Below are positions 8,457-56,796 of a stretch of DNA of 64,000 nucleotides, in pieces; within the stretch, counting starts at the first letter, position 1, and each line of letters opens with the position of its first letter. Below the pieces are notes generated by a model, which was not told the origin of the DNA, did no database searches, and saw only the letters and a program-made list of their open reading frames with translations. Made by a program: the position numbers and the translations under genes. Source of the DNA: a virus (taxonomy: Duplodnaviria; Caudoviricetes); IMG/VR virus record IMGVR_UViG_3300026549_000030, positions 64,001-128,000 of that record; one strand, written 5' to 3'.

Positions 8457-10121
8457 TTAAATTTTCATTTTATAAACTTTGGTTCCGCAGTCATATATTC
8501 TATATAGTCCATTCCGAAAACAAAACTCATGTTCTGTCTCCTCCTTATTACAGCCATATTTTGAAACAAGAATGTCTTTCCTGTAACAGAAACGGTTTTT
8601 CCTAATTCTTCCTTCTACATAGAAATAATTTGGTGGAGATACATGGTCAAGGGTAAATCCAAGCCTTTCGTATAAATTTCCATTTGACCATCTTCTGTCA
8701 GCGTATGTGATTATTTCTTTCGGGTTTACCTGTTCAATAAAGTGTCTTAAAAGTTTTGACGCCCCGCCTATTACCATATAATTTTCTTCGTTACAAAATC
8801 TTAGTAATTCATAAGCGCCTTCTTTACTTTTATATCCAAGATTTCTCCTAAGCGTGGAAAATGTCATTACACTTATTAACTTTCCTTTATACATAAGTCC
8901 GTAATTGAATTTTCCACCAACATATCCTTGAATGTGATTTCTTTCAATGAATTCTTTTGCCTCTTTTTTCGAAAGTTCTGCAATTTGGCATTTTCTTGCA
9001 TAAACCTTATTTTCAGTTATCCCTAGTATGTTTCTTATTCTTGACTTGCAGATTTCTTTCTTAAACATCCACTCATCCTCGAAAATGTGGATAAGATGTA
9101 TACCGCGTTTCTCACACTCTTCCGTTTTCCATAGGTGATAGTTCTTATCTCTTTTTCTCTCGTCATGCCAATGCAATCCGTCAAATTCTATTGCAACTCT
9201 TTTAGATGGAATATAAACATCGAGTTCATGCGTCAATAAAACATCCCTATCTTTCTTGATAATTTTATAGTTCGGCAGAAGTTCGGATATAAAAGCATAA
9301 ATTTCCTCTTCTCCATTGGAGATAATGTATCCGCACTTCTGACAACCATTTCCACTTAAATGATAAGTCGGTAATTGTTCAAAATCCCCATGCTTCCTGC
9401 AGGTTATCGTAATGGGCGTAAAACAATCTTTATAAACAACCTTTTCGTATGAATATAAATCTCCGTGTATTGCCCTCGCATCTTTAATGAACCGCTCGGT
9501 GCTCTTCGTTCTCGAGTTCGCTCTCTTAATTTTTCCGCATTCCGGGCATCCTTGCCCTCTTAGATGCTGATGCGGCGTCTGATAAAATTCACCATGTTTC
9601 GGGCAAATAATCTTTACTTTATCCCTTACCGTCTCATAAACTACACCTGAATAGTCATATTTATCTCCGTGAATTTCTCTTGCCTTCTTTATGAATTCTT
9701 CCTTGGGAAGCCTCTGTATCTTTCCGATGTACTCTTCTGCACAAAGTGAACATCCCTTTCCTGCTAAATGTGCATACGGAGCCTGCCAAAATTCTCCGTG
9801 CTTTGGACAAATAATACACACCTTTGTATATGAATCAACATATTCAACTTTTGAATAATCATATCTTTCCTCATGAATCTTTCTTGCTTTTTCAATGAAT
9901 GTCTCTGTGGTGTATTTTTTCTTCTCAGAACGAGATTCTATTCCACATTTAGGGCATCCCTGTCCCTTAAGGTGCTGATGCGGCGATTGAAAAAAAGAAC
10001 CGTGCTTTGGGCAAATTATTTCCATTGGCTCTATGAGTTTCGTATAAACAGACTTTGAATAATCATATTTATTTCCATGCACCTTTCGGGCTCTTTCTAT
10101 TATTTGTTCTAAATTATACAT
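8457..10121 (-). CDS. Hef-like putative homing endonuclease: four zinc-ribbon repeats plus a Vsr/PD-(D/E)xK-like nuclease and a C-terminal domain
   Basis: Four repeats of 'FI.KAR.IHG.KYDYS..VY....IICPKHG.F.Q.P..HL.G.GCPKCG', then 'ELDVYIPSKRVAIEFDGLHWH'. Confidence 0.75.
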   Translation of the reverse strand: MYNLEQIIERARKVHGNKYDYSKSVYTKLIEPMEIICPKHGSFFQSPHQHLKGQGCPKCGIESRSEKKKYTTETFIEKARKIHEERYDYSKVEYVDSYTKVCIICPKHGEFWQAPYAHLAGKGCSLCAEEYIGKIQRLPKEEFIKKAREIHGDKYDYSGVVYETVRDKVKIICPKHGEFYQTPHQHLRGQGCPECGKIKRANSRTKSTERFIKDARAIHGDLYSYEKVVYKDCFTPITITCRKHGDFEQLPTYHLSGNGCQKCGYIISNGEEEIYAFISELLPNYKIIKKDRDVLLTHELDVYIPSKRVAIEFDGLHWHDERKRDKNYHLWKTEECEKRGIHLIHIFEDEWMFKKEICKSRIRNILGITENKVYARKCQIAELSKKEAKEFIERNHIQGYVGGKFNYGLMYKGKLISVMTFSTLRRNLGYKSKEGAYELLRFCNEENYMVIGGASKLLRHFIEQVNPKEIITYADRRWSNGNLYERLGFTLDHVSPPNYFYVEGRIRKNRFCYRKDILVSKYGCNKEETEHEFCFRNGLYRIYDCGTKVYKMKI

Positions 10122-44425: not shown

Positions 44426-45709
44426 TTATTCTTCGTCATTTACCTCATATTCATCTTCTGTTTGCTCTTCGTCGAGTATAGATTCCAAATCATCAAGGCT
44501 TTCTGCGTAGACAATATCCGGCGAATATCCGCCGAGTTTTATTTTCAAAACCTCGTTCTTATGCATTCCCTTATTTGCGGTAATTTTTACCTCATCGTCC
44601 GACCGTAATACGAGTGGAGTATCAACCGTAATGGCACTTTGCGTTATTTCGTCATTTACATAAATTTGTAAATTGCTTATTCCGTGCTCGTACGTAACAC
44701 CTGTAACCACAAGGTTAACGTCGGAAGGAATCGAGAATTTTGCCTTATCTATACACTTCGGCAACGTAACAGAAACGCTTATCGGCTTATAGTAATACTT
44801 ACTCTTTTCCTCCTCGTTACATTCTAAGTCAGAAACGTCAATAACCGTATGGCTTCTACCAGTCTTCATTGGGAGATAAATCGTAGTAACTTCGCCGCAG
44901 GAACCTTCAATGAACAGTGGTTTGTACTCCAACTCATCCATTTCAATTTCGGGCTTCTTCTTAGTAAGACGAGGTAATCCCATTCCGACGCCAATTTTAA
45001 GCGGAACTTCGTCAACACGGTAGTCGTTCTCGGTTATGATATACGCCATAACTTTAATCTGATACGTTTGAGAGTAGAACTGCCTGTCGTTGATATTATA
45101 CTGAGACTCGTCGTTAATGCTCTCAAGCGTCATTGGAATGAAGTGCCCATTCGGTTGAATATAGCACTGACAAGCTGAGAAACATTTATTTACAATCGTA
45201 TTGAATTCATTCAGAGCAGAGTACCTTGTTGTGAATATAGAAACCTTGTAATTCAAGTCGATAGCCATTGGCTGTTTCATCTTCAATACAAGATAAGATT
45301 CTGAGCCGTTCTCGTCAAGAACTTTCTTCTTTTTCATTGGATAGAATCTTTCTCCCGGAATATTCCAAAGTCCGCTTTGAATTTCTCCGTATTTCGGGTT
45401 ATTCTCTCTCGTCACCGTCTTAAAATTAAGCAACAGATTCTTATTCTCGTCAACATATTTCCAAGACTGAGAATACTCAGAGAATCGCTGATTACTGAAC
45501 AACGACATAGTAGGGTACTCCTTGCCATCGTCTGAGACAATGGTAAGTCCCTTCACCCAATCCCTGAATGCTTCGTCTATATCCTTATATTCCAAAGTCT
45601 TCGGTAAGAACGTTCCGTCTTTGACAATATCGTTTAACATTTCAAGACGACGTGCGTTTCCTATCGAACTTGGATTAAGATTTATATGATTAAGATATTC
45701 CTTTGGCAT
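44426..45709 (-). CDS. Putative neck/tail-completion protein
   Basis: Lies between the sheath and the neck-like gene; 'DIDEAFRDWV', 'PMAIDLNYKVSIFT'. Confidence 0.5.
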   Translation of the reverse strand: MPKEYLNHINLNPSSIGNARRLEMLNDIVKDGTFLPKTLEYKDIDEAFRDWVKGLTIVSDDGKEYPTMSLFSNQRFSEYSQSWKYVDENKNLLLNFKTVTRENNPKYGEIQSGLWNIPGERFYPMKKKKVLDENGSESYLVLKMKQPMAIDLNYKVSIFTTRYSALNEFNTIVNKCFSACQCYIQPNGHFIPMTLESINDESQYNINDRQFYSQTYQIKVMAYIITENDYRVDEVPLKIGVGMGLPRLTKKKPEIEMDELEYKPLFIEGSCGEVTTIYLPMKTGRSHTVIDVSDLECNEEEKSKYYYKPISVSVTLPKCIDKAKFSIPSDVNLVVTGVTYEHGISNLQIYVNDEITQSAITVDTPLVLRSDDEVKITANKGMHKNEVLKIKLGGYSPDIVYAESLDDLESILDEEQTEDEYEVNDEE

Positions 45710-51232: not shown

Positions 51233-51347
51233 AAAAAATTTTTACTCATTATAAATACATTTCAATTCATAAAATTTACGTATGTTTGTTATGCAAAATG
51301 CCGATGACTATTGTTTTAGTCTACAAGCGAAAGGAAAAAAGTTAAAC

Positions 51348-53849
51348 ATGGAAAAAACTAAGATTAAGAAAATATCCCAAGAGGATATTGAAAAATTTAT
51401 CGACGGGCGTGACCCGCAAAAGCGAATTGTAAATCTCGAATACAATTACCGCGATGACTTCGTTACAGTAATCTATCGTAACGAGAACGATCAAAAATGC
51501 AAAACAAAGGAAAGTTTCTACCCTTTCTGTTGGGCGACATTGAAAGCGTGCCAACGTCTGTGTCACGGGGATAAGAATGAATTGGTTCGTATAATGAAAT
51601 TATACGGAATCGGCGTAAAGAAGCTTTCGCAAACAAATATCAAGGGAGAAGTTCGGCACGAATTCGATGACGGATACCTGTTTATGTTCTTCGCAAAGAA
51701 GCCAATGTCATACTCCCGCTTCCTTAATTTCTTTAAGGAATGCGACAATCCCGTTTATTCAAGGAATAAGGAAGACGAAGTTAATCGTCCAAAGTCAGAA
51801 TCGAAACAATATCTGTGCGTAACGCCTCAGGAACAGTTCCTCATTTCAACAGGAAAACGTTTCTTTAAGGGGTACGACGATTATGACCAGGTTCTTAAAA
51901 TGACGTTCGACTTGGAGACAACAGGACTTGATACTGAAAAAGATAAGATTAATCAGATTGGTATCAAGTTCAACCGTCCTTTCTTGAATCACCCCGAAGG
52001 ATTTGAGAAAATTTTTACTGTAACAGGAAACACAAAGGAAGAGAGGGAAGACAGCGAAAGGTTCGCCATTGACCAAATGTTCAGAATAATTTACACATTC
52101 AAGCCTGACATTATTACTGCGCATAATGGAGAGAATTTCGACTGGAATATGATTATCGGTGCTTGCAAGCGCCTCGGAATGCCAATTGAGCAATCTTCTG
52201 CAAGGTATTTTGGCGGAGATTATATCCATAAGGAGGAAAAGGAATCAATCTTGAAAATGGGCGGCGAGATGGAAAACTATCACGCCACAATCGTTCCTGG
52301 TGTTATCGTTACAGACTCCCTGCACGCTGTACGCCGTGCGCAGGCGCTTGATTCCAATATGTTAAAGGCAGACTTGAAGTACGTTACAGAGTACTCCAAG
52401 ATGAAAAAGCCTAACCGTGTATATGTTCCCGGAGATAAGATTGCAACCACATGGGCTGATATCATTAACGAATACGCATTCAATAATGAAAACGGAGATT
52501 GGTACCGTTATAATCCAGAACTTAATGATGAGGATAATGGAGAAATTTACGGCGGTAAAAAATCGTTCATTCCAGAACATGGATTCATTAGAGATGGCTA
52601 TGAACTCACAACAGGAAAATATATTGTGGAAAGATACCTCTTGGACGACTTGTGGGAATGCGACAGGGTTGAGTACAGGTACAACACTCCGAATTTCCTT
52701 GTGTGTAAAATGCTTCCCGTTCCGTATCGTCGCTGTACTACTATGGGTACTGCAGTACAGTGGAAGGCGCTTATGCTTGCTTGGAGTTATGAGCAAGGGC
52801 TCGCAATTCCTATGTTCGGTGAGCAAAAGACGTTCACGGGAGGTTTGTCTCGATTATTGAGGACAGGATTTGTTAAAAAAGTTGTTAAGCTTGACTATAA
52901 CTCACTTTATCCTTCCATTATTCTGACATGGGGAATTACCGATCCGACAGACCTTATGCTGTCAATGCTGCATTTCCTTGAACACGTTCTTACACAGCGC
53001 GAAAAATATAAGGGCTTAAAGAAAGCTGCGGGAAAAAAGAAGGAAAAGGCGGAAACCGAAGAAGAAAAACGCAAATACGCTGAGGAAGAATCATTTAACG
53101 ATAAGAAGCAGCTACCTCTTAAAATTTTCGGTAACTCGTTCTTTGGAAGTTACGGAGCGCCTAACGTTTTTCCGTTTGGTAGTCTGAAGTGTGCCGAGCA
53201 GACAACGTGCACAGGGCGCATGGCGTTACGACTTATGATTAGCCATTTCAAGAAGCTTGGATACGAGCCTATTGTGGGTGACTCCTTTACGGAAGACACA
53301 CCAGTGTTTATTAGATATATTAAAACTGGAATGATTGATATTGTTCCTATTTGTGAGCTTATTAGCGAAGAACATATTGAAACAGATGCGCTTGGTCGTG
53401 AATATGATTATTCTAAAAAGCCGTATCAAGTTCTTTGCCGTAGTGGATGGGTAAGCCCGTCGTACATTTACAGGCATAAAACCAATAAGGACATCTACGA
53501 AGTGACAGACGATGAAATGCGAGCTGAAGTTACAGAAGACCATTCACTTTTCGACACAGAAATGAATAAGATTAATCCTTCCGAAATTAACAGTAGTACA
53601 GAATTAGAGTATTACAGCGGAAACATTAGCAATCTAAAAGATAAAGAAGTACGTGATGAGTGGATTGGAGGCGCGGCAAAAAGGCTTGCTGATAACGATA
53701 TTGATAGGGTTCCCCTTTATGTACTGAATGGCACAAAATACAACGCGCAAATGTTCTATGAAGCTTTTATGGAATTTCAGAGGGATGATATTCAATATAG
53801 CAAGACTTGTCTCGCCGGGCTTCAATATCTCAAAAAAAGTATTTCATAA
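51348..53849 (+). CDS. polB: Family B DNA polymerase, N-terminal half, fused to N-terminal split intein
   Basis: Exo motifs 'FDLETTG' and 'HNGENFD', region II 'DYNSLYPS', region III 'KIFGNSFFGSYG', then 'IVGD|SFTEDTPV'. TATGTTTG at 51281-51288 supports the start at MEKTKI. Confidence 0.93.
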   Translation: MEKTKIKKISQEDIEKFIDGRDPQKRIVNLEYNYRDDFVTVIYRNENDQKCKTKESFYPFCWATLKACQRLCHGDKNELVRIMKLYGIGVKKLSQTNIKGEVRHEFDDGYLFMFFAKKPMSYSRFLNFFKECDNPVYSRNKEDEVNRPKSESKQYLCVTPQEQFLISTGKRFFKGYDDYDQVLKMTFDLETTGLDTEKDKINQIGIKFNRPFLNHPEGFEKIFTVTGNTKEEREDSERFAIDQMFRIIYTFKPDIITAHNGENFDWNMIIGACKRLGMPIEQSSARYFGGDYIHKEEKESILKMGGEMENYHATIVPGVIVTDSLHAVRRAQALDSNMLKADLKYVTEYSKMKKPNRVYVPGDKIATTWADIINEYAFNNENGDWYRYNPELNDEDNGEIYGGKKSFIPEHGFIRDGYELTTGKYIVERYLLDDLWECDRVEYRYNTPNFLVCKMLPVPYRRCTTMGTAVQWKALMLAWSYEQGLAIPMFGEQKTFTGGLSRLLRTGFVKKVVKLDYNSLYPSIILTWGITDPTDLMLSMLHFLEHVLTQREKYKGLKKAAGKKKEKAETEEEKRKYAEEESFNDKKQLPLKIFGNSFFGSYGAPNVFPFGSLKCAEQTTCTGRMALRLMISHFKKLGYEPIVGDSFTEDTPVFIRYIKTGMIDIVPICELISEEHIETDALGREYDYSKKPYQVLCRSGWVSPSYIYRHKTNKDIYEVTDDEMRAEVTEDHSLFDTEMNKINPSEINSSTELEYYSGNISNLKDKEVRDEWIGGAAKRLADNDIDRVPLYVLNGTKYNAQMFYEAFMEFQRDDIQYSKTCLAGLQYLKKSIS
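53283..53846 (+). mobile_element. Split intein, N-part (188 aa)
   Basis: Block A 'SFTEDTPV', block B 'VTEDHSLF', degenerate LAGLIDADG-region remnants, then stop. Confidence 0.88.
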
Positions 53850-53903
53850 TTCTTTCTTTTTAGATTTGTTTGTATATTTATTATTAGAAAGAATTATGAA
53901 ATA
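53840..53903 (+). promoter_or_regulatory. 18-bp hairpin occluding the endonuclease start, with a late-type motif in the loop
   Basis: tatttcataattctttct (53840-53857) pairs perfectly with agaaagaattatgaaata (53886-53903); TATTTAT at 53875-53881. Confidence 0.75.
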
Positions 53904-54838
53904 TGAGAAAACTAACAAAAGAAGAGGTAATTGAAAACATAAAAAAATTGTGCGGAGATAATTTTACGTTTTCATTAAAAGAATATGAAAACACCGGAAG
54001 TAAGGTTATTTTGACTTGCAATAAATGTGGCAAAACCTTCAAAAGAAAATACAATACATTGATGTATAATCAAACGTGCCCATATTGCAATGGTACGGCA
54101 AGGGTACAAGATACTGAATGGTTTATTAAAAAAGCCACAGAACTTCATAATGGTAAGTACGACTATTCAAAGTCAGAATATCGCGGAACAGATAAAAAAG
54201 TAATTGTTATCTGCCATGAAAAAGATGAATTCGGAGAAGAACATGGTGAATTTTTTGTCACCCCACACTCGCATATCGGTTCAATGAAAAGCGGCTGTCC
54301 GAAATGTTCCGGAAAATATAGGACAACAACAGAGGAATTTATTAAGAAAGCGAAGAAAATTCATGGAGATAAGTACGATTACTCAAAAACCGTTTACGTA
54401 AGGGCGCTATCTCCGGTCATAATAACCTGCCCGGAACACGGAGACTTCCTTCAGAAGCCAAACGGCCATTTATCAGGACAGGGCTGCCCTTATTGTAAGC
54501 AAAGTCATATTGAGCGAGAAATAAGGGAACTGCTAATCGAGAATAAAATTGAATTTAAACAAGAATATACGCCAGAATGGCTCAAACCGCTGCATATAGA
54601 TTTTTTCATACCGTCAAAAAATATCGCAATTGAATGTCAAGGGCTACAGCATTTTATTCCCGCAGCATATTACGGTGGAGAAGAAGGGCTTTCTATTAGG
54701 AGAGAAAGGGATGAAAGAAAAAGAAAGTTATGTAGAGAAAACGATATAACGTTATTATATTATGCAAATTACGATTATGATTTCCCTTATTATGTGATCA
54801 AAAATAAAAATGAACTTTTGAACTTTATAAAAAACTAA
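53903..54838 (+). CDS. Free-standing homing endonuclease (zinc-ribbon repeats plus Vsr-like domain) between the intein halves
   Basis: Same repeat as the 8457-10121 protein; 'IDFFIPSKNIAIECQGLQHF…RDERKRKLC'. Confidence 0.82.
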   Translation: MRKLTKEEVIENIKKLCGDNFTFSLKEYENTGSKVILTCNKCGKTFKRKYNTLMYNQTCPYCNGTARVQDTEWFIKKATELHNGKYDYSKSEYRGTDKKVIVICHEKDEFGEEHGEFFVTPHSHIGSMKSGCPKCSGKYRTTTEEFIKKAKKIHGDKYDYSKTVYVRALSPVIITCPEHGDFLQKPNGHLSGQGCPYCKQSHIEREIRELLIENKIEFKQEYTPEWLKPLHIDFFIPSKNIAIECQGLQHFIPAAYYGGEEGLSIRRERDERKRKLCRENDITLLYYANYDYDFPYYVIKNKNELLNFIKN

Positions 54839-54847
54839 TTATCTTTG
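54817..54847 (+). promoter_or_regulatory. Bacteroidota sigma70-type promoter for the second polymerase half
   Basis: TTTG (54817-54820), 19-nt spacer, TATCTTTG (54840-54847). Confidence 0.7.
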
Positions 54848-54869
54848 AAATATATTAAATTTTAAGAAC

Positions 54870-54971
54870 ATGATTAATGTAAAAAACAAAGGAAAAACGT
54901 CCGCGTATGTTTATGACATCTCTCTTGATGGAACGGTAGTCAACGCACTGGGTATGAACGTCATGAGTAAT
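54870..54971 (+). mobile_element. Split intein, C-part (34 aa)
   Basis: 'MINVKNKGKTSAYVYDISLDGTVVNALGMNVMSN|T': block F 'VYDI', terminal Asn, +1 Thr. Confidence 0.88.
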
Positions 54972-55201
54972 ACAGATGGCTTCAATTTTGCATTACCAGA
55001 CGATTCTGTTTACAGATATACTAAGGAGCATCCTTACGTGAGTACGGGACTATCACGAGAAACAAAAGAAGGCACTGAATATACCGGTTTTAAAGCAGAT
55101 GTAGCAGAATTTAATGATATCTATATGTGCGACAAGCACTACTCCACAGATGCAGTAAATAAAATGGGGCTTGGTATCGATGAAATTGTCGACGCAACCA
55201 T
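54870..55201 (+). CDS. polB: Family B DNA polymerase, C-terminal half, exon 1 (IntC + TDG…)
   Basis: Completes the GD|TDG catalytic motif; ends at the group I 5' splice site. Confidence 0.88.
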
Positions 55202-55529
55202 TAACAAATTGGTGGCATAACACGAAAACGTGTTAATGAAAATTCGGTGAATTGCGGGAAATCCTATAAAACAATAAAGATACTACTCACAATTGAGAAG
55301 AATGGGTAACGCCATTTTAATAGTAACAACTCTTTATTGGGGACAATCAACTAAACGCAGCCAAGCTTGGGCTTAACAACCCTTGAAGGTTCAGAGACTA
55401 ACGGTTGAAACTCTTTATTGAGAATATAATACCGACACGAGTGCCGAACATCTTAATAAGATGATGATATAGTCCGACACTTTGGGTAACCAAAGAATTA
55501 ATCTTAAATGATTGATTATTAACAGTTTG
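55202..55529 (+). ncRNA. Group I self-splicing intron (IA-like, ORF-less, 328 nt)
   Basis: P element AATTGCGGGAAA, R element GTTCAGAGACTA, S element GATATAGTCC. P1 CCAU^UAA/UUGGUGG with U-G pair; P10 CAAUUU/AAAUUG; P2, P3, P8 and P9 helices; terminal G. Splicing restores the reading frame. Confidence 0.93.
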
Positions 55530-56796
55530 CAATTTTAGCCGCAAAAACTACGCAGACTACTTTCCTGAGAATCCTTATCCTGAGGATGTTAAACTTGTGG
55601 GTAACACTATCAAGTCAAAGAAAATGCCTGAATATATTTCCAAATTCCTTGCAATTGGAATTAGGCTGCTCTTGCAGGGTAAGGGACAGGAGTTCCTTGA
55701 GGAATACTACAACTACGTGGAGAAAATCTACAATTATCAGATACCGCTCAGGGATATCGCAACCAAGGGTAAGATTAAGAAAACACTTGCCGAGTATAAG
55801 AAGGACGTTCAAACACTTACAAAGGCGGGGCGCCCGAAATCCCGACAGGCTTGGTACGAACTTGCAATTGCGAACGGGCTCAGCGTAGGTAACGGTGATA
55901 CGATTTATTATATCAATACAGGTAAGTCAAAATCTCACGCTGACGTTAAAAAAACGAAGAAATTCTATTCTACGGATATGTTCGGACAGACAATCGACAT
56001 AACGAAGAAAATTGAAAGCGCTTATAATAAGTGGAAAAAATCTCCCGAAGCAATAAAGAGTGTAGGCGGAACAAATCTCGCTTCCACATACGCCATTGAC
56101 GATTACGCAAGGAAATACTACAATCCTGTCGATATCAAAGACGAGATTATTCTGAACTGCGCCCTCGTTCCGAGAGATATTCTTGATAAGGAAGAGGACA
56201 CGTTCTGCGCGGACGTAAGCGAGGAACTCGAATATAACGTTCCCAAGTACGTTGATATGTTCAACAAGCGCATTACCCCGCTCCTCGTTTGCTTCAGCAA
56301 GGAAATCCGTTCTGACATTCTTATTGACAATCCGAAGAACCGTCCATACTTCACAAACGAGCAATGCGAACTCGTGTCAGGTGAACCGAATAAACCAGGC
56401 GATCAGGACACATACGAGCAGCTTATGACTATGGAAGATAAGGAAATCAAGTTCTGGAAAAAGTATAACCTTGTTCCTCCATTTGTTGAGGAGTGCGGAA
56501 TGGGAACTTGGGAAGAGATTCTCACTGATTATGATAGGAGAATGGAAGAGGAAGAGAAGAGTGGACTCGCAGCGGAGAAGGCACTATACGGACAACTTCT
56601 CGATCAGATGACGGCAGAGGAAATAGACACCGTTATAGAGGAGGGTACGCTTCCTGCGGCATTCTCAAAAATTGTTGAGGTTGACCCTGAGACAATGGAC
56701 TTAATATCAAAGGCTTACAATCGCGGCAAAATCGGAAATCTACGAGATTTCATTGATGCGAGGACAGCAATAAGTCAGGTTGAAAATATGGATTAA
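55530..56796 (+). CDS. polB: Family B DNA polymerase, C-terminal half, exon 2
   Basis: Frame is open upstream of the track's GTG: 'NFSRKNYADY…VKLVGNTIK' (KxY motif region), 'GDTIYYI', 'KYVDMF'. Confidence 0.9.

Follow-up and report, generated by a model that had tools for sequence, protein, structure and literature searches.

We analysed a window of 64,000 nucleotides, bases 64001–128000 of one 241,996-bp virus record (all positions below are numbered in the window unless marked as genome), in which a family B DNA polymerase gene (polB) is interrupted by the two halves of a split intein, an endonuclease gene and a group I intron. An open reading frame (ORF) at 51282–53849 runs through polymerase sequence to ...EPIVGD and then continues as SFTEDTPVF... 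for 188 residues before reaching a stop; this added segment is the N-terminal intein half (IntN). A second ORF, at 54870–55220, opens with a 34-residue segment ending in ...NVMSN, the C-terminal intein half (IntC), which is followed directly by TDGFNF. The start at 51348 agrees with the N-termini of homologues, and the polymerase part of the first ORF (the N-extein) contains the exonuclease domain, motifs A and B and the first Asp of motif C. Read across all of the pieces (Table 1), the features of a family B polymerase come in order: the exonuclease domain, DYNSLYPS, KIFGNSFFGSYG, VGD/TDG and SRKNY (motifs A, B, C and KxY).

Table 1. Pieces of the broken polB locus and the motifs upstream of its three genes.
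Feature	Position	Strand	Details and evidence
TAnnTTTG motif upstream of polB N half	51281..51288	+	Bacteroidota-type -7 promoter box; putative promoter
PolB N-extein	51348..53282	+	645 aa, ends ...EPIVGD; Pfam DNA_pol_B_exo1, DNA_pol_B; phrog_262, E 1e-52
IntN	53283..53849	+	188 aa + stop; Ser1, block B T-E-D-H, ~75-aa tail
TAnnTTTG motif upstream of endonuclease gene	53861..53868	+	Intergenic sequence conserved in relative L010
Endonuclease gene	53903..54838	+	311 aa; free-standing, in a different frame from polB; PHROGs, Pfam, fold match
TAnnTTTG motif upstream of polB C half	54840..54847	+	Matching TACATTTG at the same place in L010
IntC	54870..54971	+	34 aa; block F ...YVYDISLDG..., ends ...NVMSN; alignment A2, complex model
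C-extein exon 1	54972..55201	+	TDGFNF... to ...DEIVDAT + 2 bases of an Ile codon; colinear with L001, L002
Group I intron	55202..55529	+	328 nt, no ORF; RF00028, 70.6 bits
C-extein exon 2	55530..56796	+	Ile completed, NFSRKNY..., thumb, C-terminal domain, stop; colinear with intact homologues

When the intein segments and the intron are left out, the two halves join to 645 + 498 = 1143 amino acids (aa), which align end to end with the intact PolB of two relatives (79.5% identity to L001 and 75.8% to L002) with zero gaps at either the intein or the intron junction. The N-extein on its own is 83% identical to residues 1–645 of L001 PolB. At the DNA level, relatives read GGTGAT/ACTGAT across the intein site, and intron-less relatives are shorter by exactly 328 nt at the intron site. 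A preliminary description of this DNA had given coordinates and lengths, all of which were reproduced here, and had proposed the joining and alignment to uninterrupted PolB whose colinear, gap-free outcome is reported above. It had also held that PolB motif C is broken by a split intein, that a Vsr-like endonuclease ORF lies between the halves and that a 328-nt group I intron sits just before the KNY (KxY) motif. These assignments stand, the intein on its conserved catalytic residues and a contiguous homologue at the same site, the endonuclease on its fold matches to Vsr and I-Bth0305I, and the intron on its RF00028 match, the fit of its splice sites and compensatory changes (see below). Nonsynonymous distances (dN) are 0.13–0.45 and synonymous sites are saturated throughout the segments, those of IntN, IntC and the endonuclease among them; dN/dS ratios are not computable because of this saturation. 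All of the polB pieces appear to be under purifying selection.

The intein, the endonuclease gene and the intron

The intein halves were assessed in two alignments, one of 18 IntN sequences (A1) and one of 30 IntC sequences (A2). Ser1, the block A nucleophile, is invariant in 18/18 IntN sequences, as are the Thr and His of block B (T-E-D-H), and in the IntC sequences there is no variation at the block F Asp or at Thr+1 and almost none at the terminal Asn. Recurrence was counted in the best 120 of 3290 matches to the C half. In this set, 112 C halves open with a 30–59-aa IntC-bearing segment (IntC itself is about 33–35 aa, the longer segments reflecting upstream start calls). The TDG motif could be located in 117 of the 120, where it is preceded by SN (91), HN (8), KQ (8) or another residue followed by Asn (5), and the remaining five have an unsplit GD/TDG; the +1 residue is always Thr. 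At the 50% identity level, IntN forms the end of at least 10 PolB N-half clusters, and the intein catalytic residues are conserved across clusters whose exteins are only 50–57% identical. Judged from its sequence, the intein here looks catalytically competent.

With phmmer, neither IntN nor IntC matched anything in the PDB. Solved inteins were reached only through the A1 profile of the 18 relatives, which matched the Aes123 PolB1 intein (9hth, E 4.7e-6), with the block B region in the alignment, and also a TFIIB intein (5o9j). In L006 and L009, whose PolB is 40% identical, a contiguous intein occupies the same GD/TDG site, starting with SVTGETPVYIRY... and ending with ...YVYDISADGTFIAGIGNIVAHN; it is homologous to IntN at one end and to IntC at the other, and the stretch between them looks LAGLIDADG-like. 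The contiguous intein of P0327 matches Pfam LAGLIDADG_3, together with Intein_splicing at 27 bits, below the curated cut-off of 35.8. IntN is 36% identical to the N part of the P0327 intein, and its last 50 residues align within the P0327 endonuclease region (E 0.008). IntN appears to be composed of a splicing domain and the remnant of a former LAGLIDADG endonuclease domain, the match for the tail being weak. Many stand-alone proteins of 106–112 aa (P0156, P0169, P0173 and others) match only residues 79–187 of IntN, the tail; these could be artefactual pieces from gene calling, or signs that IntN is broken again in other phages.

A prediction of the IntN–IntC complex scored 0.91, compared with 0.18 for the best of 3 controls, and this mark was reached by 58/80 solved complexes and 2/110 mismatched pairs. 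The model runs share at least 87% of contacts, and the predicted local distance difference test (pLDDT) score of the partners is at least 77. The prediction supports the binding of IntN and IntC to each other in one fold; the high score could also stem from resemblance to split inteins of solved structure.

The protein encoded between the halves matches several PHROGs (phrog_559, E 2e-66; phrog_9084; phrog_7140), whose labels include "homing endonuclease" and "intron encoded nuclease". Sequence searches against the PDB, both single and profile, gave no nuclease match, 3r3p included, so a fold search was needed. The protein was modelled with AlphaFold (pLDDT 88.4), and the C-terminal domain (residues 199–311), a Vsr-like (EDxHD-type) nuclease, was matched best with VIA-align to Vsr (1cw0, Z 11.1, root-mean-square deviation 3.0 Å over 103 residues; 1vsr, Z 10.3) and to 3r3p (Z 10.0, 2.9 Å over 90 of 97 residues, 22% identity); Foldseek gave a probability of 1.00. 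D233, E244, H250 and D270 are invariant in 30 homologues. The structure 3r3p is that of I-Bth0305I, the prototype EDxHD homing endonuclease (Taylor et al. 2011, PMC3239194). The two proteins have the same C-terminal nuclease fold, and the invariant Asp and His lie 17 residues apart, as D196 and H213 do in I-Bth0305I. The invariant Glu 11 residues past the Asp would correspond to the additional acidic residue of the EDxHD family, and the spacings also fit D51/F62 of Vsr. Unlike I-Bth0305I, which is intron-encoded and has NUMOD/helix-turn-helix motifs, the protein here is the product of a free-standing gene between intein halves, and its N-terminal part is made of zinc-ribbon repeats (Pfam DUF4379/DUF723) in place of NUMOD motifs. 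The gene is predicted to encode a homing-endonuclease-like protein of the EDxHD/Vsr type.

The endonuclease family is large, with more than 8000 candidates. At least five further copies of this zinc-ribbon plus Vsr-like family were seen in this genome, at window 8457–10121 (-) and at genome 62401–63534 (-), 138688–140013 (+), 150230–151189 (+) and 1686–1969 (-), and one of them is degenerate, with two TAA stops. The other genomic copies do not obviously lie between the halves of broken genes; they look free-standing among unrelated genes.

For the intron, RF00028 matched 55192–55496 over the full model (positions 1–253) with a score of 70.6 bits, above the gathering threshold of 50 bits. In the predicted P1, exon CCAU pairs with GUGG, including the wobble pair U55201.G55212, and a P10 of 6 bp would form between CAAUUU of the 3' exon (55530–55535) and AAAUUG (55206–55211) of the guide sequence, with G55529 as omega G. 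Cleavage at 55201/55202 and at 55529/55530 is the sole frame-preserving combination in which a U ends the upstream exon and a G ends the intron. The intron site lies 76 codons downstream of the intein junction, and because a stop codon occurs five codons into the intron, ribosomes should halt early in the unspliced intron. Five more copies of the intron at the same site (L016, L019, L020, L021 and L022) share its core, and 36/97 predicted pairs show compensatory changes across the six copies. In L022, the 3' exon carries a synonymous U-to-C substitution, and the guide sequence has the corresponding A-to-G substitution. The intron is likely to be self-splicing, joining 55201 to 55530. Outside the window, a weak group I intron-like match (19.6 bits, E 0.001) was found at genome C1:164426–164608 (-) (L014).

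A polymerase that would mature by two kinds of splicing

We consider it probable that the locus is one functional family B DNA polymerase gene which was invaded by three independent selfish elements and which matures by splicing. A close precedent is that of "fractured genes", where a free-standing Vsr-like endonuclease gene lies between split intein halves (Dassa et al. 2009, PMC2677866). In the scheme that we propose, a contiguous intein in motif C (GD/TDG) was broken into IntN and IntC by such an endonuclease gene, apparently inserted within or beside the former LAGLIDADG domain of the intein, and the ORF-less group I intron would be a separate invader downstream. This origin by endonuclease invasion would fit the Dassa model, as the IntN tail resembles a LAGLIDADG remnant and relatives carry a contiguous intein. 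Each of the three genes (N half, endonuclease, C half) would be its own cistron behind a TAnnTTTG box, and the C-half transcript would self-splice at the sites given above. IntN and IntC would then dock and trans-splice by an N-O acyl shift at Ser1, transesterification to Thr+1 and Asn cyclisation. The expected product is the 1143-aa polymerase with an intact GDTDG motif, its junction reading ...EPIVGD-TDGFNF... and the predicted junction peptide being ...EPIVGDTDGFNFALPDD.... The two splicing steps, the promoter role of the boxes and the invasion of a contiguous intein by the endonuclease gene are our inferences; that the product requires RNA splicing followed by protein trans-splicing would follow from how the locus is laid out. 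On the plus strand between 51000 and 57000, TAnnTTTG occurs in three copies only, one shortly before each of the three gene starts, and these copies are a hint of Bacteroidota-type promoters in a pattern that was read after the fact.

Several points weigh against this interpretation. The penultimate His of block G is replaced by Ser here and in 91 of the 112 IntC-bearing C halves, and eight of the 120 best C-half clusters terminate in Lys-Gln instead of Asn; splicing by inteins without the penultimate His is known. Neither IntN nor IntC is recognised by Pfam (Intein_splicing included) or by PHROGs, and we know of no counterpart, among split inteins characterised so far, to the extra tail of about 75 aa on IntN. 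Thr+1 belongs to the polymerase motif as well, so its conservation is not independent evidence, and TAnnTTTG is not enriched window-wide (36 copies observed, about 35 expected). The exchange of His for Ser, the relatives ending in Lys-Gln and the lack of an Intein_splicing match would speak for intein halves that have ceased to splice and now only dock the polymerase fragments non-covalently, as the fragments of Aeh1 NrdA-a/NrdA-b reportedly do. We regard such docking alone as unlikely. The halves here are full length rather than shrunken, and Ser1, the block B Thr and His, the block F Asp and the terminal Asn have been kept despite extein identities of 50–57%. Furthermore, the two Asp of PolB motif C bind the catalytic metals, so a 222-aa intein left in the motif C hairpin should be incompatible with catalysis, and PolB structures suggest that an unspliced insert of this size between the two residues would be hard to tolerate. 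As the break falls between these two Asp, real splicing, beyond docking, would be necessary for activity. Among T4-like phages, naturally split PolB inteins with Ser1 have been shown to trans-splice in vitro (PMC12707363).

With an estimated completeness of about 68% (CheckV), roughly one third of the genome lies outside the record, which leaves room for a polymerase encoded elsewhere and thus for a decaying pseudogene or a defective phage at this locus. We think this very improbable, considering that every piece is open, colinear with intact homologues and apparently under purifying selection, and that hundreds of related sequences, some of them contigs of 280–390 kb, have the same architecture. 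It is hardly credible that the stops themselves are artefactual, whether by assembly error, chimera or an alternative genetic code. ARAGORN called a 90-nt selenocysteine tRNA (tRNA-SeC, anticodon UCA) at 45477–45566 (-), which could be a suppressor tRNA, but the call lies inside a long ORF and a scan of the window at gathering thresholds found no Rfam tRNA there; it is probably false. More than 20 stop codons interrupt the polB frame from the IntN stop to the IntC ATG, which rules out read-through, recoding or an alternative code at the stops, and the endonuclease is in another frame. The same broken layout recurs in independent assemblies from several different studies.

Allele states among relatives

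Close relatives of the locus are in IMG/VR and in rumen and gut metagenome assemblies, on contigs up to 280–390 kb, and the GenBank phage collection held nothing nearer than PolB at 22% identity, from Salinibacter phages. The virus is an uncultured jumbo phage whose host is probably a member of Bacteroidota. Among the relatives, polB is intact and uninterrupted in L001 and L002, fractured with no intron in L010-12, fractured with the intron of the window (intron B) in the window itself, L019/L023 and L020, and fractured with both intron B and a second intron (intron A) in L016-18. L021 and L022 also carry intron B, on sequences that do not cover the upstream part. The IntN-endonuclease-IntC arrangement is conserved in L010-12, L015-18, L020 and L023. 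In L016:7269-7936 (and also in L017 and L018) the introns are in tandem, A scoring 35.7 bits (E 2.6e-7) and B 70.6 bits. P1 of intron A is GGCAU/GUGCC, and the 24-nt mini-exon between the two introns (a gat gaa gtc gtt tca gca acc at) encodes DEVVSAT plus part of an Ile codon.

We also surveyed the 120 best ORFs in public metagenomes that resemble the IntC-plus-exon-1 ORF of the window. The read-through tail of intron A ends 34 of these (at ...MGLGI), and that of intron B ends 12, including P0488, which has an unsplit GD-TDG motif. The preliminary description had known of no such three-element stack in one phage polymerase, but by these counts the stack is not rare. Because the presence and absence of the elements varies among relatives, they appear to be independent and mobile, and the stack is common among metagenomic relatives of the phage, where the same split PolB occurs in more than 100 sequence clusters and dozens also have an intron here. 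One gene family displays stages of the gene-breaking model of Dassa et al.: intact, contiguous intein, fractured, fractured with one or two introns, and fractured with a gap widened by genes. The last of these is L023:59-8191, where the gap between the PolB N half and the IntC half is 3.7 kb and holds four genes, namely a 566-aa DUF723 endonuclease (a second paralogue), a nucleotidyltransferase-like gene, a 70-aa ORF and then the usual 312-aa endonuclease. Uncoupled polB halves had been a candidate reading of L019 and were rejected, as the wider flank places the PolB N half 3.7 kb upstream.

Compared with L010, the endonuclease of the window is 79% identical and the N-extein only 52%, a mosaic that suggests local exchange. 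Such exchange would also fit a reading in which the elements form a cooperating mobile unit rather than being merely additive parasites, an idea that we find doubtful. Introns A and B are located 190–230 nt downstream of the IntC junction and could spread to new polB alleles by co-conversion upon cleavage by the neighbouring free-standing endonuclease ("collaborative homing"), and the obligatory order of RNA splicing and then protein splicing might delay or gate the maturation of the polymerase during infection. Separately, at the exact site of intron B (L010:7270-7330), the intron-less fractured allele of L010 contains 14 inserted residues (...LGGYDENGKQLPGGSLQ...), which may be a footprint or may shield the allele against homing.

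Comparison with known systems

The locus is built from known kinds of mobile elements. It shares with the fractured genes of Dassa et al. (2009) the adjacent same-strand halves, the IntN and IntC ends, the separately translated Vsr-like endonuclease gene and the replication enzyme as host gene, and the contiguous intein at the same site in relatives is what their gene-breaking model predicts. It differs in that PolB motif C is absent from their 26 loci, that IntN is 188 aa with an apparent LAGLIDADG-derived tail where theirs is about 100 aa, and that the nucleophiles are Ser1 and Thr+1 with a Ser-Asn C-terminus. In addition, the second half here also carries one group I intron (two in some relatives), and the gap in L023 contains four genes. 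A family B polymerase made from two genes that are joined via a split intein is known from Nanoarchaeum equitans (as cited in PMC2677866), but its two genes lie at distant places in the genome, and neither an endonuclease gene nor an intron is present.

Cysteine-less PolB inteins, naturally split or contiguous, have been described from T4-like phages (CP21 PolB1, LCGC14 PolB2 and Aes123 PolB1; PMC12707363, PMC13014065; 9hth). These resemble the intein here in the Ser1 nucleophile, in being split at the endonuclease insertion site and in the profile match to 9hth. The sequence similarity is only distant, however, and the intein here has Thr+1 rather than Ser, a longer IntN and a different phage lineage, and its activity is predicted. 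Jug and crAss-like gut phages are described in general terms as having genes heavily fragmented by introns, inteins and endonucleases; DNA polymerase genes are among those split, and introns were validated with metatranscriptomes (PMC12880540, PMC7886860). As in these phages and in the group I introns of phage polymerase genes, a small ORF-less intron lies in a conserved polymerase motif region (PMC12880540, PMC7886860, PMC3428280), and the phage is likewise from gut or rumen and probably infects Bacteroidota. In the available text of the Jug and crAss-like reports, unlike here, no polymerase split intein, protein trans-splicing or stack of three or four elements is described. Our literature search found no description of the PolB split intein family considered here or of the combined stack.

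On this interpretation, four seemingly unrelated ORFs would be re-annotated as one essential polymerase gene, and the same correction would apply to hundreds of sequences of uncultured rumen and gut jumbo phages. The family would also constitute a large natural set of inteins with a canonical split, whose nucleophiles are Ser1 and Thr+1 and which end, unusually, in Ser-Asn. Few cysteine-independent split inteins are available, and more are wanted for protein engineering (PMC13014065, PMC12707363); this family, if active, would be a ready source of them.

A minor observation concerns the contig of the intron-less fractured allele, where a tmRNA (L010:619-1024, 101 bits) and an IF1-like protein are found near polB.

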